Below, one piece after another: positions 32,348 to 44,427 of a stretch of DNA of 44,427 nucleotides. Numbering within the stretch: position 1 is the stretch's first letter; every line of letters begins with the position of its first letter. The notes below the pieces were generated by a model that saw only the letters and a list, made by a program, of their open reading frames with translations, did no database searches and had not been told where the DNA came from. Source of the stretch: an uncultured Bacilli bacterium (GTDB lineage: Bacteria; Bacillota_I; Bacilli_A; RF39; UBA660); contig CASPVX010000004.1 of the NCBI GenBank assembly GCA_949425575.1, positions 1-44,427 of the forward strand. The letters are read 5' to 3'. The position numbers and the translations under genes are program-made.

Positions 32348-33823
32348 TTATATTACAATGGCAAATAAATTACCAGAACCTTTATTAACTAATTTAGATA
32401 AAGTTTGTTGTAATTTAAATCTAGCATTTTCTGGCATCAATGAAAGTTTAGCTTGAATGCCTTCTTTAACAATAACATCTAAACTTCTACCAAAAATCTC
32501 ACTTTTCCATATATTAGAAGGATCTGTATCATAATCTTTCATTAAGTAATTAATAAGTTCCTTACTTTGAATTTCAGATCCAATAATTGGTTCAAAGGTA
32601 CTTTCAACATCGATTCTAATCATATGAATTGATGGCGCTACAGCTTTTAATTTAACACCATATCTACTTCCTTGTTTTATAATTTCAGGTGTATCTAATG
32701 TCATATCTTCTAATGATGGTGATGCTACGCCATAACCAGTTGTTTTAACCATTTTAAGTGCTGTTTTAACTTGATCATATTCTCTTTTAGCCTCATTATA
32801 ATCTTGAAGTAATGATAATAAATCAGCTCTATTAGTTATATCAACACCTATTATTTCTTTTAACACTCTATTATATAGAGTTTCATCACATCTTAGAGTA
32901 ACTGTAACTTCTCCAGTTCCTGTATCAACATTGGTTAAAGCAGCTTTTTCTATATACTCACAAGTTTCTAAAGATGTTGTTATTTTTTCAATATCTCTTA
33001 ATTTATCGATTTCATGTACACTTTCTTTTATTGTTTCTACATACGATTTTTTTAGCCAATTGTCAGGTGCAAGACATGCAATCCAATCTGGCATTTCTAT
33101 ATTAATACAACTTGCTGGAAATTCATATAATGCCTCCCTTAAAATACTATAAGCATCTCTTTCGCTCATATTTTCAATATTCATTGGTATTACTGGAACA
33201 TTATATGTTTCATTTAAACTTTCAGCAAGTCTTTCTGTTTCTGGTAACATTGGATGAGTTGAATTTAAAATAACAATATGTGGTTTTCCAATTTCAGAAA
33301 GTTCTTTTGCAATTCTTTCTTCTACCTCAATATAATTATTTCTTTCGAATTCACCTATAGAACCATCGCTTGTTATAAGAATTCCAATACTTGAATGGTC
33401 ACGAATTACCTTTTCTGTACCTATTTCAGCAGCTTCTACAAATGGTATTTCTTCTTCATACCATGGAGTTCTTACCATTCTTGGACCATTTTCATCCTCA
33501 TAACCTTTAGCTCCATTTATAACATAACCAACACAGTCAACCAATCTAACATCAGCGCTAAAATCATCTATTTTTATTTTAGCACCATTACTAGGAACGA
33601 ATTTAGGCTCTGTTGTCATAATTGTTTTGCCCTGTGCACTTTGAGGTATTTCATCTAGAGTTCTTTTTCTTTCATATTCATCTTCAATGTTTGGTACTAC
33701 TAGATTTTCTATAAATCTTTTAATGAATGTTGATTTCCCTGTACGAACAGCTCCAACGACACCTAAGTATATATCGCCTCCAGTTCTTTCGGTAATACTC
33801 TTTATTATTTCGTTTTTTTCCAT
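32348..33823 (-). CDS. spoIVA: Stage IV sporulation protein A
   Basis: RTGGDIYLGVVGAVRTGKSTFIKRF, MTTEPKFVP, DCVGY, IWKSEIFG motifs. Confidence 0.98.
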   Translation of the reverse strand: MEKNEIIKSITERTGGDIYLGVVGAVRTGKSTFIKRFIENLVVPNIEDEYERKRTLDEIPQSAQGKTIMTTEPKFVPSNGAKIKIDDFSADVRLVDCVGYVINGAKGYEDENGPRMVRTPWYEEEIPFVEAAEIGTEKVIRDHSSIGILITSDGSIGEFERNNYIEVEERIAKELSEIGKPHIVILNSTHPMLPETERLAESLNETYNVPVIPMNIENMSERDAYSILREALYEFPASCINIEMPDWIACLAPDNWLKKSYVETIKESVHEIDKLRDIEKITTSLETCEYIEKAALTNVDTGTGEVTVTLRCDETLYNRVLKEIIGVDITNRADLLSLLQDYNEAKREYDQVKTALKMVKTTGYGVASPSLEDMTLDTPEIIKQGSRYGVKLKAVAPSIHMIRIDVESTFEPIIGSEIQSKELINYLMKDYDTDPSNIWKSEIFGRSLDVIVKEGIQAKLSLMPENARFKLQQTLSKLVNKGSGNLFAIVI

Positions 33824-40550: not shown

Positions 40551-41249
40551 CTATTCTTCTTCGTGAACTTCCTCTGATATATATAATACTGTTAGAAGTA
40601 CAAAGACAAATGCTTGTAGCCCACCATCGAATAAGTCAAAATACATACACGCAATACTTGGTATTATTGCTGGTAAGCTAGCAGATAGTAATTCCATTAG
40701 GATATAAGCTCCTAATATATTACCAAAAAGTCGCATACTTAGCGATAATGGTTTTGTGATAAATTCTAATAAATTAAATGGGAATAAGAATGGTAATGGA
40801 GAAAATAATCTCTTAACAAACCCTTTAATTCCTTTAACATATATTCCAGCACCTATAGCTACAACAATAGTCATTACAGCTAAAGCAACAGTTACACCAA
40901 ATGATCTTGTTGGTGGGGCAATAAGCCCATGAGTTAATCCACTCATAAATAATGCACCTAAGGTATTAGAGATAATTAAGAAAAGACCAATTGTACCAAC
41001 ATAAGCGGCAAATTTTTTTCCTTTTTCTCCCATGAAACTTACAGTAAAATTAGTAATACCTTCAACTACTAGCTCTGCAGTATTTTGAAGTCCTGCTGGA
41101 ACTAGTCTCATTTTTCTTGTTGCCAAAAAAGCCCAAGCAATTATAACGCCCATTGCAATCCATGACATTATAACAACATTGGTTACTGGAATATTAAAAT
41201 AAGGTATTTCAAATATTGTACTCACATGATCATTCATACTCTCACCCAT
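40551..41249 (-). CDS. atpB: ATP synthase a
   Basis: P..LQN..E, PPT, KPLSLSMRLFGN, LQAFVF..LT..YI; start may be ATG 41237. Confidence 0.96.
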   Translation of the reverse strand: MGESMNDHVSTIFEIPYFNIPVTNVVIMSWIAMGVIIAWAFLATRKMRLVPAGLQNTAELVVEGITNFTVSFMGEKGKKFAAYVGTIGLFLIISNTLGALFMSGLTHGLIAPPTRSFGVTVALAVMTIVVAIGAGIYVKGIKGFVKRLFSPLPFLFPFNLLEFITKPLSLSMRLFGNILGAYILMELLSASLPAIIPSIACMYFDLFDGGLQAFVFVLLTVLYISEEVHEEE

Positions 41250-41287: not shown

Positions 41288-41317
41288 ATTATATCTCAAA
41301 AAAAAGTTAGTTGTCAA
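41288..41317 (-). promoter_or_regulatory. sigma-A promoter of the atp operon (no atpI)
   Basis: TTGACA-18nt-TATAAT. Confidence 0.72.
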
Positions 41318-41346
41318 TGGAAAAGCCATATTTTATATTAGGAAAT

Positions 41347-41372
41347 AAAAACAGTATAATTGTTTATACTGT
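41347..41372 (-). terminator. Terminator after the tail-collar gene
   Basis: ACAGTATAA-4nt-TTATACTGT followed by a T run on the minus strand. Confidence 0.65.
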
Positions 41373-41374
41373 CT

Positions 41375-43245
41375 TTAATGCTTAACTATATAATTAAGAG
41401 CTATAAAAGAATTTTGAACTGAAATAGATACTGATGGATTTCCAGTAGACCCTGACGCTTTAGCTACTGTAGTAATGTTATGAGGATGAGCTCCTGATGA
41501 GGCTACCTTATAAACTATCCCTTTTCCCCATTCACTATAATTAGAATTTTCAAGTGCCATAGAAAAAGCTCTATTTGCAGTATATACTTCCCACCTATTA
41601 GAAACAGAGTTACTGTTTTTATTGAATGTCCATGTTGCAGCATTAGCATTAACAGAATCTACATTGTGTTGATGAGCTCCTGCCGATGCTGCTGTCCCTG
41701 ATAATTTGGGTACTTTATGTGTATGATTTGGTATATTTGATAATGCTACATTAACCGTATTTGAGCCGCCTACTATTCCATTTACATCAGAAGAGTTATT
41801 CCCATTTATTTGTTTTCCTTGCATATTTGGTAAGTTGAATGTTGTACTTCCATCTCCAGAACCATATGTTGTTCCTATTTTTTCAAACAATTTTGAATAT
41901 GTTTCTCTTGATATTGCTCTTCCATCACAAAGTAAATAACCATCTGGGACACTATTTGATGACCATATTTTTATTGTGCCAGGTGATATACCTGAAGACC
42001 CCTGATTCTTTATTAAATACTTTTCTGTTATATATGGATTTTGTATATTAATGGAACTTCCACTTCCAGCACCACCTGTTGTATTTTCATTTGTTGCTAT
42101 GTTATGAGTATGGGCTCCTGCTGAAGCTACTTTGGTTACTCTACCCTTTCCCCAATCTCGGTACATTCCTGATGTAGTAACATAATTTGCGAAATAACTT
42201 TTTTTGGAAACAGATATAATTAAATTCGATACATTATCACTATTAGAGGCCATCGAAATAGCATAAGCATTCACATTCGCCGAATCTATATTATGCTGAT
42301 GCGCTCCTGCCGATGCGGCTGTTCCTGATAATGATGGAATACTATGTGTATGACTTGGTATATTTGAGTTTGTAAGTGTTACGGTAGTACTTCCTCCAAC
42401 ATTACCAACAGTACCACCTTTTAAAGTTCTATTTAACGTATTTGGTAAATTAAATGTTGTATTTCTATCGCCTACTCCATATGTTGTTCCTATTTCCTCA
42501 AACAATTCTGATGACTCTTCTCTAGAAACACTCTGACCATTTCCTACCAAATAACCTTCTGGGATATTATTTGAACTCCATACTATAATTTTTCCTGTTC
42601 GTGTACTTTTAGTCCCTAAGTTATATGCATTATTTAAATTATTATTTTTTACTTTTATATAATATTTCATTTTTATATATGGGTTTTCAACATTAAATTC
42701 AATTCCACTTCCAGTACTTCCAGATGTATTAGCTACTGTAGTTACACTATGATTGTGGGCACCTGCTGACGCTACTTTATTTACTCTTCCTTGCCCCCAA
42801 TCTCCATACCAGCCTGATGAACTCTTAGCAAAACCCTTTTTATCACTATATTTAGTCCAGATATTAGAAACACTATTACTATTGATTGCTAAAGTAATAG
42901 TTCCTGCATTTGCACTTGCTGAATCAATATTGTGCTGATGGGCTCCTGCGGATGCTGCTGTTCCTGATAACACTGGAATATTATGTGTATGGGCTGGCAT
43001 AGAGGTTAACTTTGAAGTATTACTTCCGCCTGTTGTACCTAGTGGCACTGCATTACTACTTCCTATTACCTTTCTATCAGTTATATTAGGTAAATTAAAT
43101 GTTGTACTTCCATTTCCTGATCCATATGTTGTCCCGATTATTTCAAATAATTCAGAATATTCTTCTCTTGATATCGCCCTTCCATCACATGGCAAATAAT
43201 TTTCTAATTCTTTATTTCCTGCATATATTATTATCTCTCCTAATA
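41375..43245 (-). repeat. Three ~630-bp tandem intragenic repeats
   Basis: 35-bp cores at 41670-41704, 42297-42331 and 42936-42970 (periods 627 and 639 nt) differ only at synonymous positions. Confidence 0.9.
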
Positions 43246-44427
43246 GGCTTTCATCTATTTTAATTACATTATATACATTACTTGTTACATAGTTTACTCC
43301 ATCTGTTACTCTAGCTATTACGCTTCCTTCTGTTATAAAATCTAATGTTTGAATAGTTTTAGCTTCTTCCCATGTACTACCATCAAAACTATACTCTTTT
43401 ACTAAATTATCATTATTATAATTTATTGTTAGTGTTTTACTATCCGCATATTCTAATTTATCTATTTGAAATGTTGGCATTTCTATTTTTATTGTTTTTA
43501 CTACTTCTTCTTTTTCAGTTTGGTTCCCTACTTTATCTGTTACTCTTACTTTTATTTTATATTCTGTATTATGCACTAGTTCATCGAATGTATAATTATT
43601 ATATTTTCCATTATCTATATAATCTTCGTCATTTATAGAATATTCATATTTTTCAATTCCACTTTCATCTATCGCATTTCCTATTACAGTTATACTTTTT
43701 GTTGTTGTACTTGTGTTTATTGTTAACTCTGGAGCCTTATTATCTATTTTTATAACTTCTTTTGTTATTTCTGTAATATTTCCTTCGTTTTCTATCTTCG
43801 CATATATACTAGTATTTTCTTCTACATTTATTTCCTTAGGGTTCGTAGCTTCTATATATTCGTTACTTCCTATTTTATAATAATATTTTGATCCTTCTAT
43901 TTCTGGATATTCTATTGTTACTTTTTTACTTCTTGTCCAATTATTTTCATTTTCTACTTTTATTATACTGTTTGTTATATCTTGTGTTGTAATCCATTTA
44001 CTTTCTGTTACGTAGTTTCCATCTTTATCTTCTACTTTATAATATACTGTATATCGCTTGTTTGGTATTAAACCTGTAAATGTATATGTATTATTTTCTG
44101 AGGCTTCAGTATAGTTCTTATCATCTAAACTATATGAATATCTTAAGCCATTTCCTTTTGCTTTTACTGTCACTTTTATGCTTGTATAATCACTTTCTTC
44201 TATTGTGCTTTCTATCTCTAGTTTATTTGATTCTATTCCATCCTCTGGTTCATTAAATATTTGGTTATCATCTTGGATTATTTCTGTAAATACTTCTATT
44301 TTGCTTGTTATATCTTCATTAATCTTTGTTCCTTCTGGTATACAAACTCTTACTATATATTCTAGTGTTTCCCCTGCTTTTAATATTTGTCCTTTTTCTA
44401 TTCCTCTTGTCTCTACTAATACTTGTT
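41375..44427 (-). CDS. Large protein (5' end outside the window): Fn3/Ig-like stalk + three tandem phage tail-collar/HxH fibre-tip modules
   Basis: frame is open from the window edge (QVLVETRG...SIKVTVKAKG); Fn3-like YTF.GL.PN..Y.V...V.D..GN twice; three collar motifs (YL.CDG.A.SR..Y..LF..IGTTYG.G.GSTTFNLP in modules 1 and 3, diverged in module 2). Confidence 0.9.
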   Translation of the reverse strand, partial: QVLVETRGIEKGQILKAGETLEYIVRVCIPEGTKINEDITSKIEVFTEIIQDDNQIFNEPEDGIESNKLEIESTIEESDYTSIKVTVKAKGNGLRYSYSLDDKNYTEASENNTYTFTGLIPNKRYTVYYKVEDKDGNYVTESKWITTQDITNSIIKVENENNWTRSKKVTIEYPEIEGSKYYYKIGSNEYIEATNPKEINVEENTSIYAKIENEGNITEITKEVIKIDNKAPELTINTSTTTKSITVIGNAIDESGIEKYEYSINDEDYIDNGKYNNYTFDELVHNTEYKIKVRVTDKVGNQTEKEEVVKTIKIEMPTFQIDKLEYADSKTLTINYNNDNLVKEYSFDGSTWEEAKTIQTLDFITEGSVIARVTDGVNYVTSNVYNVIKIDESLLGEIIIYAGNKELENYLPCDGRAISREEYSELFEIIGTTYGSGNGSTTFNLPNITDRKVIGSSNAVPLGTTGGSNTSKLTSMPAHTHNIPVLSGTAASAGAHQHNIDSASANAGTITLAINSNSVSNIWTKYSDKKGFAKSSSGWYGDWGQGRVNKVASAGAHNHSVTTVANTSGSTGSGIEFNVENPYIKMKYYIKVKNNNLNNAYNLGTKSTRTGKIIVWSSNNIPEGYLVGNGQSVSREESSELFEEIGTTYGVGDRNTTFNLPNTLNRTLKGGTVGNVGGSTTVTLTNSNIPSHTHSIPSLSGTAASAGAHQHNIDSANVNAYAISMASNSDNVSNLIISVSKKSYFANYVTTSGMYRDWGKGRVTKVASAGAHTHNIATNENTTGGAGSGSSINIQNPYITEKYLIKNQGSSGISPGTIKIWSSNSVPDGYLLCDGRAISRETYSKLFEKIGTTYGSGDGSTTFNLPNMQGKQINGNNSSDVNGIVGGSNTVNVALSNIPNHTHKVPKLSGTAASAGAHQHNVDSVNANAATWTFNKNSNSVSNRWEVYTANRAFSMALENSNYSEWGKGIVYKVASSGAHPHNITTVAKASGSTGNPSVSISVQNSFIALNYIVKH

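Follow-up and report, generated by a model that had tools for sequence, protein, structure and literature searches.

What is a triplicated phage fibre tip doing at the end of a cellular surface protein? The question is raised by contig CASPVX010000004.1 (C4), whose 44,427 nucleotides are analysed here in full as the window and which belongs to the genome bin of an uncultured Bacilli bacterium (1.05 Mb, 68 contigs, 79% complete, ~28% G+C, repeats collapsed in assembly). At one end of the window, on the minus strand, lies the 3′ part of a surface-protein gene (41375..44425, 1016 codons and a stop), called the fibre-tip gene below. Its product closes in three modules, each with a phage tail-collar domain and a set of HxH motifs (histidine, any residue, histidine). 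An earlier note on this DNA had suggested that the three copies fold within one chain as a pseudo-trimer displayed on the cell as an adhesin. A one-chain pseudo-trimeric adhesin head on a cell-surface protein is indeed the reading that we regard as probable, with measured confidence. The strongest argument for one three-part working unit is that relatives of the same genus encode each module in a gene of its own, the three genes lying side by side in matching order.

Three collar modules in one chain

The visible frame is open up to the contig end and extends past it; its stop codon is at 41375-41377, and its true start is not marked by the GTG at 44173. Residues 1-393 (43247..44425, minus strand, as are all parts of this gene) form an Ig/Fn3-like stalk, delimited by Pfam and by comparison with paralogues. 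The three modules that follow each comprise a Collar domain, an HxH region and a closing strand. Module 1 occupies 42647..43246 (HxH at 42983-42991, 42932-42940 and 42749-42757), module 2 occupies 42008..42628 (42344-42352, 42293-42301 and 42104-42112) and module 3 occupies 41378..42004 (41717-41725, 41666-41674 and 41480-41488).

Pfam Collar (PF07484) matches the 1016-aa frame three times (E 4.2e-60, 200 bits against a cut-off of 24), which places the protein in the family, and it was recovered in a genome-wide family search as well. The PHROGs tail, tail-collar and tail-fibre families also match three times each, with a best E of 3.4e-64. The motifs read HTH/HQH/HNH in module 1 (residues 479, 496 and 557), HTH/HQH/HTH in module 2 (692, 709 and 772) and HTH/HQH/HPH in module 3 (901, 918 and 980). 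These nine HxH occupy three aligned positions in each module of ~205 aa, exactly as the earlier note had listed them. Its C-terminal modules, with Collar, three HxH and a closing strand, are likewise borne out by Pfam, PHROGs and motif alignment, and its module limits agree to within a few codons. A profile built from the three modules spans residues 394-591, 606-806 and 814-1016, and together with a genome search it sets the limits at 43246-42647, 42610-42008 and 42004-41378; the wider extent of module 2 given above includes a segment whose homologue in the relative G043 is the N-terminal end of the mature gene 2 product.

In all six aligned modules, three from the window and three from the G043 genes, every one of the six histidines that make up the three HxH sites is invariant. 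Alignment also places the least conserved stretch of the module between the second and third HxH, where it is rich in W, Y and F, in agreement with the variable aromatic loop proposed earlier. Each module ends in a closing strand of the NPY/NSF...Y.IK type. Pfam Gp10_C (PF21939), a second tip family considered below, has no match in the window protein at E up to 0.1. The nearest record in a phage database searched by tblastn, Sinorhizobium phage phiM6, is 37% identical over 83% of module 3, so that no donor can be named.

A three-gene counterpart in relatives

A family search of 61 genomes of the genus found Collar in 8 and Gp10_C in 20, and the window is the only case among them of three collars in a single frame. 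Three relatives carry the modules unfused. At G043:C3, G075:C30 and G047:C6, a long gene with one terminal Collar/HxH module is followed by two short one-module genes, and these short genes begin with N-terminal signal or transmembrane segments. Two other relatives have a long gene and one short gene. G053 and G069 were not scored as partial fusions, because the reported open-frame lengths read through stops (C18 544, C28 587). Relatives within one genus are kin, and are counted here as such rather than as independent observations.

The correspondence with G043 is collinear. Two of its genes encode P0133 and P0134, the two best single-module matches among 1.84 billion proteins, which are 54% and 52% identical to module 3 over the full length of that module. 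All six modules of the window and G043 are 49-57% identical. Set against G043 genes 1-3 in order, module 1 scores 56/54/51%, module 2 scores 49/52/50% and module 3 scores 50/51/53%, the gene at the same position being top each time. The stalk-to-module-1 junction is collinear in the two loci, the mature N-terminus of G043 gene 2 matches the window linker and the start of module 2 at ~20 of 28 residues, and 'GTIK.WSS' marks position 3 in both. In G043, the place of linker 1 (6 codons, 42629..42646) is taken by the gene 1 stop and the gene 2 signal peptide, and that of linker 2 (8 codons, 41984..42007) by the gene 2 stop and the gene 3 signal peptide; 6 and 8 window residues thus replace a stop codon and signal peptide each.

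The number of HxH per chain, counted partly by eye in these relatives and in the short-gene loci of the window's own genome, is 3/3/3 in G043 and 5/5/5 in G075, and in G047 it is 5, then 4 with a further degenerate motif, then 5. In this last locus the long chain (L071 789-3242, 817 aa) begins with a sequence like that of type IV pilins and continues with an Ig stalk and a single Collar/HxH module. The G047:C6 locus is thereby an in-trans counterpart of the pilin-headed three-collar proteins of Saccharibacteria described below. At G013:C1, an 856-aa open frame (L019, 663 aa examined) has Ig domains, Flg_new-like repeats recognised by eye and one C-terminal Collar/HxH module.

On parsimony, the window gene is best read as a collinear in-frame fusion of a three-gene unit; fission in the relatives would be less parsimonious. 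The ancestral locus would have held a stalk gene with one module and two secreted one-module genes, and their fusion would fix a stoichiometry of one stalk to one trimeric head.

Split loci in the same genome

Modules related to those of the window lie at the ends of C33, C7, C17, C16, C18, C30, C28 and C15 of the same genome, as found by tblastn and the module profile. They are of the Gp10_C type and not Collar (70-83 bits against 27). Each locus opens with a long gene that shares the stalk and ends in a helical neck and one HxH module. After it comes one short gene in C17, C16, C18, C30 and C28 and two in C33 and C7; every short gene encodes a signal peptide, a helical neck and a single module. 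HxH numbers are equal within a locus (3/3/3 in C33 and C7, 5/5 in C16), and the head inserts are near-identical within a locus and different between loci. In the simplest reading, one anchored and two secreted chains, arranged as A-B-C or A-B-B, would make up one trimeric head.

The long and short genes of C18 and C28 share a frame and are parted by a single stop (L014 869-871; L015 13250-13252). These stalk and partner genes are one mutation short of a two-module fusion. Directly after the stalk-plus-partner locus of C17 lies a prepilin-type (N_methyl) protein with bacterial Ig-like domains (L008 2002-3159).

Predicted architecture of the head

Homotrimeric HxH fibre tips of the T4 gp12/gp37 type are textbook structures. 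In the reading favoured here, the C-terminal 620 residues of the fibre-tip protein would fold as three modules round one pseudo-threefold axis, so that one chain would reproduce a homotrimeric receptor-binding tip of the T4 gp12/gp37/gp10 type. Each of the three HxH layers would form a six-histidine metal site that staples the head, and the three diverged aromatic-rich loops between the second and third HxH would make up an asymmetric binding face.

AlphaFold2 modelled a 626-aa region from 56 sequences with a mean predicted local distance difference test (pLDDT) score of 64.5 and a predicted template-modelling (pTM) score of 0.61. The three collars and the three closing strands reach pLDDT 82-96. 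Each predicted closing strand pairs back with its own collar, so the module starts and ends at one place, and linkers of 6-8 residues can therefore join the modules side by side. With 297 of the 626 residues at pLDDT ≥70, a pTM of 0.61 suggests three units held in one predicted rigid frame, a deduction from the definition of pTM and not from coordinates. For the intramolecular fold that the earlier note proposed, the model gives three confident collars, and its HxH regions fall below pLDDT 50.

Foldseek placed the cyanophage A-1(L) fibre 8KEC first for the module region (E 4e-6), with weaker matches to the T4 gp12, gp37 and gp10 fibres (1OCY, 5IV5, 2XGF and 2FKK) and to Bizionia C24 (6OV6, E 0.29-0.89). 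The solved chains listed match at most about one module (≤307 alignment columns, TM-score normalised to the model ≤0.20). Prediction of a complex from the three modules as separate chains with 3 Fe scored 0.33; controls with replaced partners scored 0.00 and 0.00, and a control with chain 2 replaced scored 0.37, so that this result counts neither way.

Three copies of the protein could instead assemble, each module trimerising with the same module of the other two chains, into a homotrimeric fibre with three successive collar/needle segments. The solved relatives are all homotrimers (8KEC; T4 gp12, 1OCY/5IV5; gp37, 2XGF), and serial collars in trimeric fibres do exist, as phage-like homologues without an export signal show (30 of 166 with one collar and 74 with two). 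The modelled return of the closing strand to its own collar and the short linkers suit side-by-side packing and not stacking. The Ig/Fn3 stalk has no coiled coil before module 1, whereas the split paralogues do have helical necks, and in the relatives modules 2 and 3 are secreted as chains of their own that lack a stalk. Together with the module number of pilin-headed homologues given below, these features make an inter-chain trimer unlikely.

Carrier and stalk

The 5′ end of the fibre-tip protein is taken from a sister assembly, in which a 44,982-nt contig encodes P0002, a near-identical full-length counterpart of 1124 aa. P0002 and the window protein are 100% identical over residues 390-1016 and ~90% identical over the repeated stalk. 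The N-terminus of P0002 has a short basic stretch followed by a hydrophobic helix of ~20 residues. The same type of N-terminus occurs in the window's own genome, at the start of C31 and in C40, and the last 19 residues at C31 are the first 19 of the window frame. Recovery of the 5′ end, which the earlier note had proposed, therefore yields a hydrophobic export or anchor segment and an Ig stalk; the prepilin motif PF07963 has no match in full-length P0002, which lacks the G-F-T-L-x-E pattern. Of the Fn3/Ig repeats claimed upstream of the modules, fn3 holds just above its threshold (E 3.9e-6, 27.4 bits against a cut-off of 25), and Big_7, PKD and Ig_Rha78A_N stay below the Pfam cut-offs.

AlphaFold2 predicts the N-terminal part as a helix followed by an eight-strand Ig-like sandwich (28 sequences, pLDDT 80.5). 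This handle, an N-terminal helix and an Ig-like domain of ~130 aa, has no Foldseek match at E up to 0.001; the Sulfolobus AAP pilin stands at rank 29 with E 0.023. A wide VIA search returned generic Ig/PapD/MSP-like sandwiches (best Z 6.9), and the ESM Atlas returned unnamed Bacillota clusters and one CARDB cluster at 0.91. The family likewise has no Pfam or NCBIfam match (NCBIfam signal-motif models, E up to 0.01). No family can therefore be assigned to it. A conserved G-[YF]-A-A-F motif at the end of the handle helix may resemble SipW-type signals; the NCBIfam signal-motif search gave no match, and in a comparison with SipW/TasA-type proteins and their jelly-roll domain the modelled handle is a generic sandwich closest to unrelated PapD/MSP-like domains.

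The handle is present in all 61 genomes of the genus, with 3-52 matches each, in contexts from stand-alone 164-aa proteins up to frames of >1000 aa, and constitutes a heavily expanded family of exported proteins. Examples are C31:2-412(-) and C40:1-591(-) in the window's own genome and L030-L058 in relatives. Its presence throughout the genus indicates that the fibre tip was mounted on a pre-existing exported-protein family. In the proposed mechanism, the hydrophobic N-terminal helix would export or anchor the protein, and the lineage-specific handle with about four Ig/Fn3 domains would form a single-chain stalk through the wall. Carriers of a monomer type, the Ig stalk here and the pilin-like N-terminus on the long chain of G047, are taken as support for a one-chain head.

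The 5′ part of the stalk is common to paralogues on other contigs (82-93% identity), and the assemblies break there; summed contig depth in three DNA runs is ~10 times higher at 43990-44427. The shared stretch comprises 43990-44427 of the window and the ends of C33, C17, C40 and C31 (82-100% identity between paralogues), across which different heads could swap by recombination. One such paralogue on C31 (L011 11236-13410, minus strand) combines the same stalk with another C-terminus of Listeria-Bacteroides (Flg_new) repeats and Ig-like domains. The tail of L011 has Trp/Tyr-rich repeats that resemble, by eye, wall- or glucan-binding repeats.

Cellular rather than phage context

Twenty further open reading frames (ORFs) were scanned in the window, and 19 of them match housekeeping families, including ATP synthase, SpoIVA, two class A penicillin-binding proteins (PBPs), NrdD, RNase Y, RecA, RF2, FtsX and the CCA enzyme; the other, of 446 aa, has no family match. 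The flanks of nine related loci are also housekeeping genes, for example FeoB, DcuC, transketolase, IleRS, PolC, RF1 and FtsW. A genome-wide search gave no match to Phage_capsid, Phage_portal, PhageMin_Tail or Phage_sheath_1, although at 79% completeness their absence is unproven. The earlier observation that no other phage gene is visible thus agrees with the housekeeping neighbours and with the families searched, and on gene content the fibre-tip gene is cellular and not a prophage gene.

A fibre gene left by a decayed prophage, tailocin or other mobile element, without a cellular role, is very improbable. The modules do match PHROGs tail families and the tips are patchy within the genus, a distribution from which we infer that the tip modules were probably acquired from phages at some time. 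Set against a remnant are the missing capsid, portal, tape-measure and sheath families, the housekeeping flanks at every locus examined and the handle family shared by all genomes of the genus. The nearest phage record is only 37% identical, and the frame is intact in an independent sample.

The host itself would be a wall-bearing, small-genome (~1.3 Mb) member of the Bacilli from animal guts. Because PBPs and FtsW are encoded, a cell wall is expected, and the stalk would project through it.

Homologues and module number

A search with the three modules returned 545 proteins, and a search of 1.84 billion representatives with module 3 returned 51,179 at E up to 0.001. Among the best 150 of these 51,179, the numbers of proteins with 1, 2, 3, 4, 5, 6, 9 and 11 collars are 4, 56, 67, 11, 2, 8, 1 and 1, respectively; ranking by summed score favours multi-module proteins and a three-module query favours three-module proteins, so that the counts are not population frequencies. 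The six-collar proteins consist of two triplets with long spacers between them.

The type of N-terminus separates 255 homologues into three groups. A pilin motif is present in 58, of which 54 have exactly three collars and four have two (one with double spacing); source names place several of these pilin-headed proteins in Saccharibacteria. Another hydrophobic N-terminus is present in 31, with three collars in 18, six in four and eleven in one. The remaining 166 have neither and look phage-like, and 30 of them have one collar, 74 two and 43 three. The constancy of three on pilins argues against both an inter-chain trimer and independent modules.

HxH numbers are equal in all three modules of 90 of the 114 three-collar proteins, in the classes 1/1/1 (49), 2/2/2 (18), 0/0/0 (13), 3/3/3 (5), 4/4/4 (4) and 6/6/6 (1). 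Both module spacings agree within 3 residues in 67 of the 114, and the median identity of modules 1 and 2 is 55%. A tree of 168 modules from 56 proteins groups them by protein and not by position, with 76 label changes against 79.8 when shuffled (36 of 200 shuffles as low as 76), and the three window modules form their own clade. A single ancient triplication was rejected, as the module tree has no clustering by position.

These data also bear on the possibility that the modules fold independently, as lectin-like beads on a string whose repetition only raises avidity. The modules of one protein are each other's closest relatives, as expected of tandem duplication, and the complex prediction gave no specific support for contacts between modules, a result that helps neither side. 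Equal HxH numbers and module lengths kept at ~55% identity argue against independently folded modules. The pTM of the model would be too high for three independent units of ~100 confident residues each. The HxH site of known fibres, for which an iron-bound example has been described (PMC11821841), needs histidines from three chains. Independent folding is accordingly rated as distinctly unlikely.

A genome-contig scan with P0002 alone gave 41 pattern matches and no confirmed ones. A scan of species-representative genomes with the module alignment confirmed 586 of 600 candidate stretches, and most of the best 80 span about three modules. Three of these 80 were opened, in Mesorhizobium (L088 2905-4551), Flavobacterium (L125 3034-4634) and Brevibacillus (L111 2917-4593), and all are triads of Collar genes (~170 aa, one HxH per gene) that lack a signal peptide and are collinear across phyla. 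The ORF after each triad looks acetyltransferase-like by eye. A literature search found no paper on these triads.

An adhesin role is not obvious for such triads, and they favour a reading in which the pseudo-trimeric head serves another purpose, such as sensing, contact-dependent antagonism or the anchoring of a filament of 164-aa handle proteins. For the window protein, display and binding agree best with its export segment, its long stalk and the existence of many paralogues whose heads differ, and a non-adhesive role is rated as fairly unlikely. Paralogues with different heads on a shared stalk may provide a repertoire of specificities, with gut glycans or other bacteria as candidate targets.

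Across these homologues a broader pattern may be discerned, which we put forward tentatively, as a little short of an even call. Fibre tips may have been converted repeatedly, in distant phyla, from homotrimers to one carrier with a three-part head. The head would be supplied in cis, as three tandem modules in one chain, or in trans, as a carrier chain joined by one or two secreted partners. A trimeric receptor-binding tip could thereby be borne by a single pilin or Ig stalk; the genus studied here would show both states as well as loci in which just one stop codon parts carrier from partner, and the cis form of Saccharibacteria would be a pilus-tip device for recognising host cells.

Evidence weighing against a one-chain head

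Several observations weigh against the favoured one-chain head. In the structural model, the HxH regions (89-179, 307-394 and 513-603 of 626) lie below pLDDT 50, so that neither the six-stranded needle nor the metal sites are modelled, and AlphaFold may lay out repeated collars like the homotrimers of its training set. By overall identity, the margin of positional orthology with G043 is just 2-5 points. The stalk protein of G013 ends in a single module, and in five of the seven loci resolved in the window's own genome the short gene is single.

The number of modules also departs from three. The earlier note had named a constant three in homologues as support for its proposal, and this holds nearly throughout the pilin-headed group and not among the best 150 matches, which include 56 proteins with two collars, 11 with four, 4 with one and 2 with five. 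The absence of positional clustering implies that triplication was repeated or that the modules were homogenised, neither of which proves co-folding. RNA cover is also too thin to show expression: one library gave 9 contigs of 96-283 nt over the gene, with a depth of 3-6 where atpB has 214, and DNA carry-over is possible.

Genomic setting

The complete atpBEFHAGDC operon lies directly downstream of the fibre-tip gene, as the earlier note had remarked, with atpB as its first gene (40551..41249, minus strand). An AU-rich 14-bp hairpin followed by a U run (41346..41377, minus strand) begins at the stop codon of the fibre-tip gene and folds at -14.5 kcal/mol (z -2.25), and a consensus terminator scan found none. 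The terminator of its own that had been attributed to the gene is therefore plausible from RNA folding, as a possible intrinsic terminator, and not from the consensus scan. Between the gene and atpB lies a sigma-70-type promoter match of 12/12 (41288..41317, minus strand). This perfect match is probably the atp promoter, which makes the fibre-tip gene likely to be a separate transcription unit.

Of the words sampled from the gene, half or more are present in each of 16 runs (12 studies, most of the runs labelled mouse gut). In one of these, an independent run, a single 8155-nt contig spans 41000-43808 with 15 substitutions and no indels, and the three-module region is thus intact in an independent sample.

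RNase P class B and PolC are present in the genome. A non-standard genetic code was rejected, since under table 11 the coding fraction is 90% and 70 of 697 long ORFs end in TGA. The window also encodes a complete SpoIVA with three Pfam domains (32348-33823, minus strand), which hints at sporulation in a reduced Bacilli genome of ~1.3 Mb. The fibre-tip gene adjoins the atp operon, and a preprint on candidate phyla radiation (CPR) pili mentions, without analysing it, a 'tail fibre-like protein' in the vicinity of ATP synthase genes (PMC13278184); this may be coincidence.

Relation to known systems

The claim that the protein could represent an undescribed adhesin class was overstated. The three-in-one architecture is common in databases, under names such as tail fibre protein, microcystin-dependent protein and prepilin-type protein, and a related fusion and a related heterotrimer are in print. 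A literature search, which left subscription journals largely outside, found no one-chain three-module tip, no bacterial stalk-plus-partner loci and no paper on pilin-headed three-collar proteins.

The window protein resembles the T4 gp12/gp37/gp10 tips and the cyanophage A-1(L) fibre 8KEC, its best sequence match in this group (E 4.9e-12), in Collar, HxH and closing strand. Those fibres are made of three identical chains on a virion, whereas the window protein has three diverged modules in one chain on a cellular Ig stalk. T4-type tips sit with tail and baseplate genes, and the window gene has no such neighbours. The putative gp12/gp37-type site itself, with nine HxH at aligned positions and the conservation given above, is here known from sequence. 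An HxH iron site has been described (PMC11821841), and the same source describes C24 (6OV6) as a long-tail-fibre tip of a Bizionia argentinensis prophage; the fold match to C24 is too weak for membership.

The virophage DSLV2 has three consecutive genes with gp37-like/PF07484 modules that are reported to form a heterotrimer with a receptor-binding region (PMC12724248). This is the same three-gene logic as in the split loci of the genus (G043, G075 and G047, and the Gp10_C modules of C33 and C7 in the window's own genome), and the window differs in having the three modules in one frame. As reported, the DSLV2 assembly is a virion component that binds Synechococcus lipopolysaccharide, with no stalk or anchor chain and with its genes unfused (PMC12724248).

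Cellular uses of collar domains are also known. A fusion of PilV with a phage tail collar at one conjugative-pilus locus was proposed by its authors as a repurposed phage domain for target specificity (PMC9881135). It is a pilus protein with PF07484, has one Collar domain and is diversified by inversion; the passages that describe it hold nothing on three modules or a pseudo-trimer (PMC9881135). Neither 'collar' nor 'tail fib' occurs in the text of the TM7x pilus paper. Mosaic adhesive trimer fibres of Bdellovibrio are cellular and recognise other cells through varied tips (PMC10769870); they are described as trimers, and are not known to have a one-chain three-module tip or an Ig stalk.

The pilin-headed three-collar proteins of Saccharibacteria and others share with the window protein an N-terminal carrier, Fn3 and three Collar domains (with Gp10_C), and are 28-35% identical to the window tip over ~80%. 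They differ in their carrier, a type IV pilin motif that the window protein lacks, and in their modules, mostly of 160-190 aa with 1-2 HxH.

Significance

If the one-chain reading is true, the fibre-tip protein would be a naturally occurring trimeric phage receptor-binding tip in single-chain form, and would account for the display of a trimeric viral binding module on a monomeric carrier, whether a pilin or an Ig stalk. Engineers of phage receptor-binding proteins could model asymmetric heads on it, with a different loop at each of three places round a common axis. The presence of split and fused forms within one genus makes the idea directly testable. The proteins described here would then be candidates for host recognition, both in gut Bacilli with small genomes and on Saccharibacteria pili.

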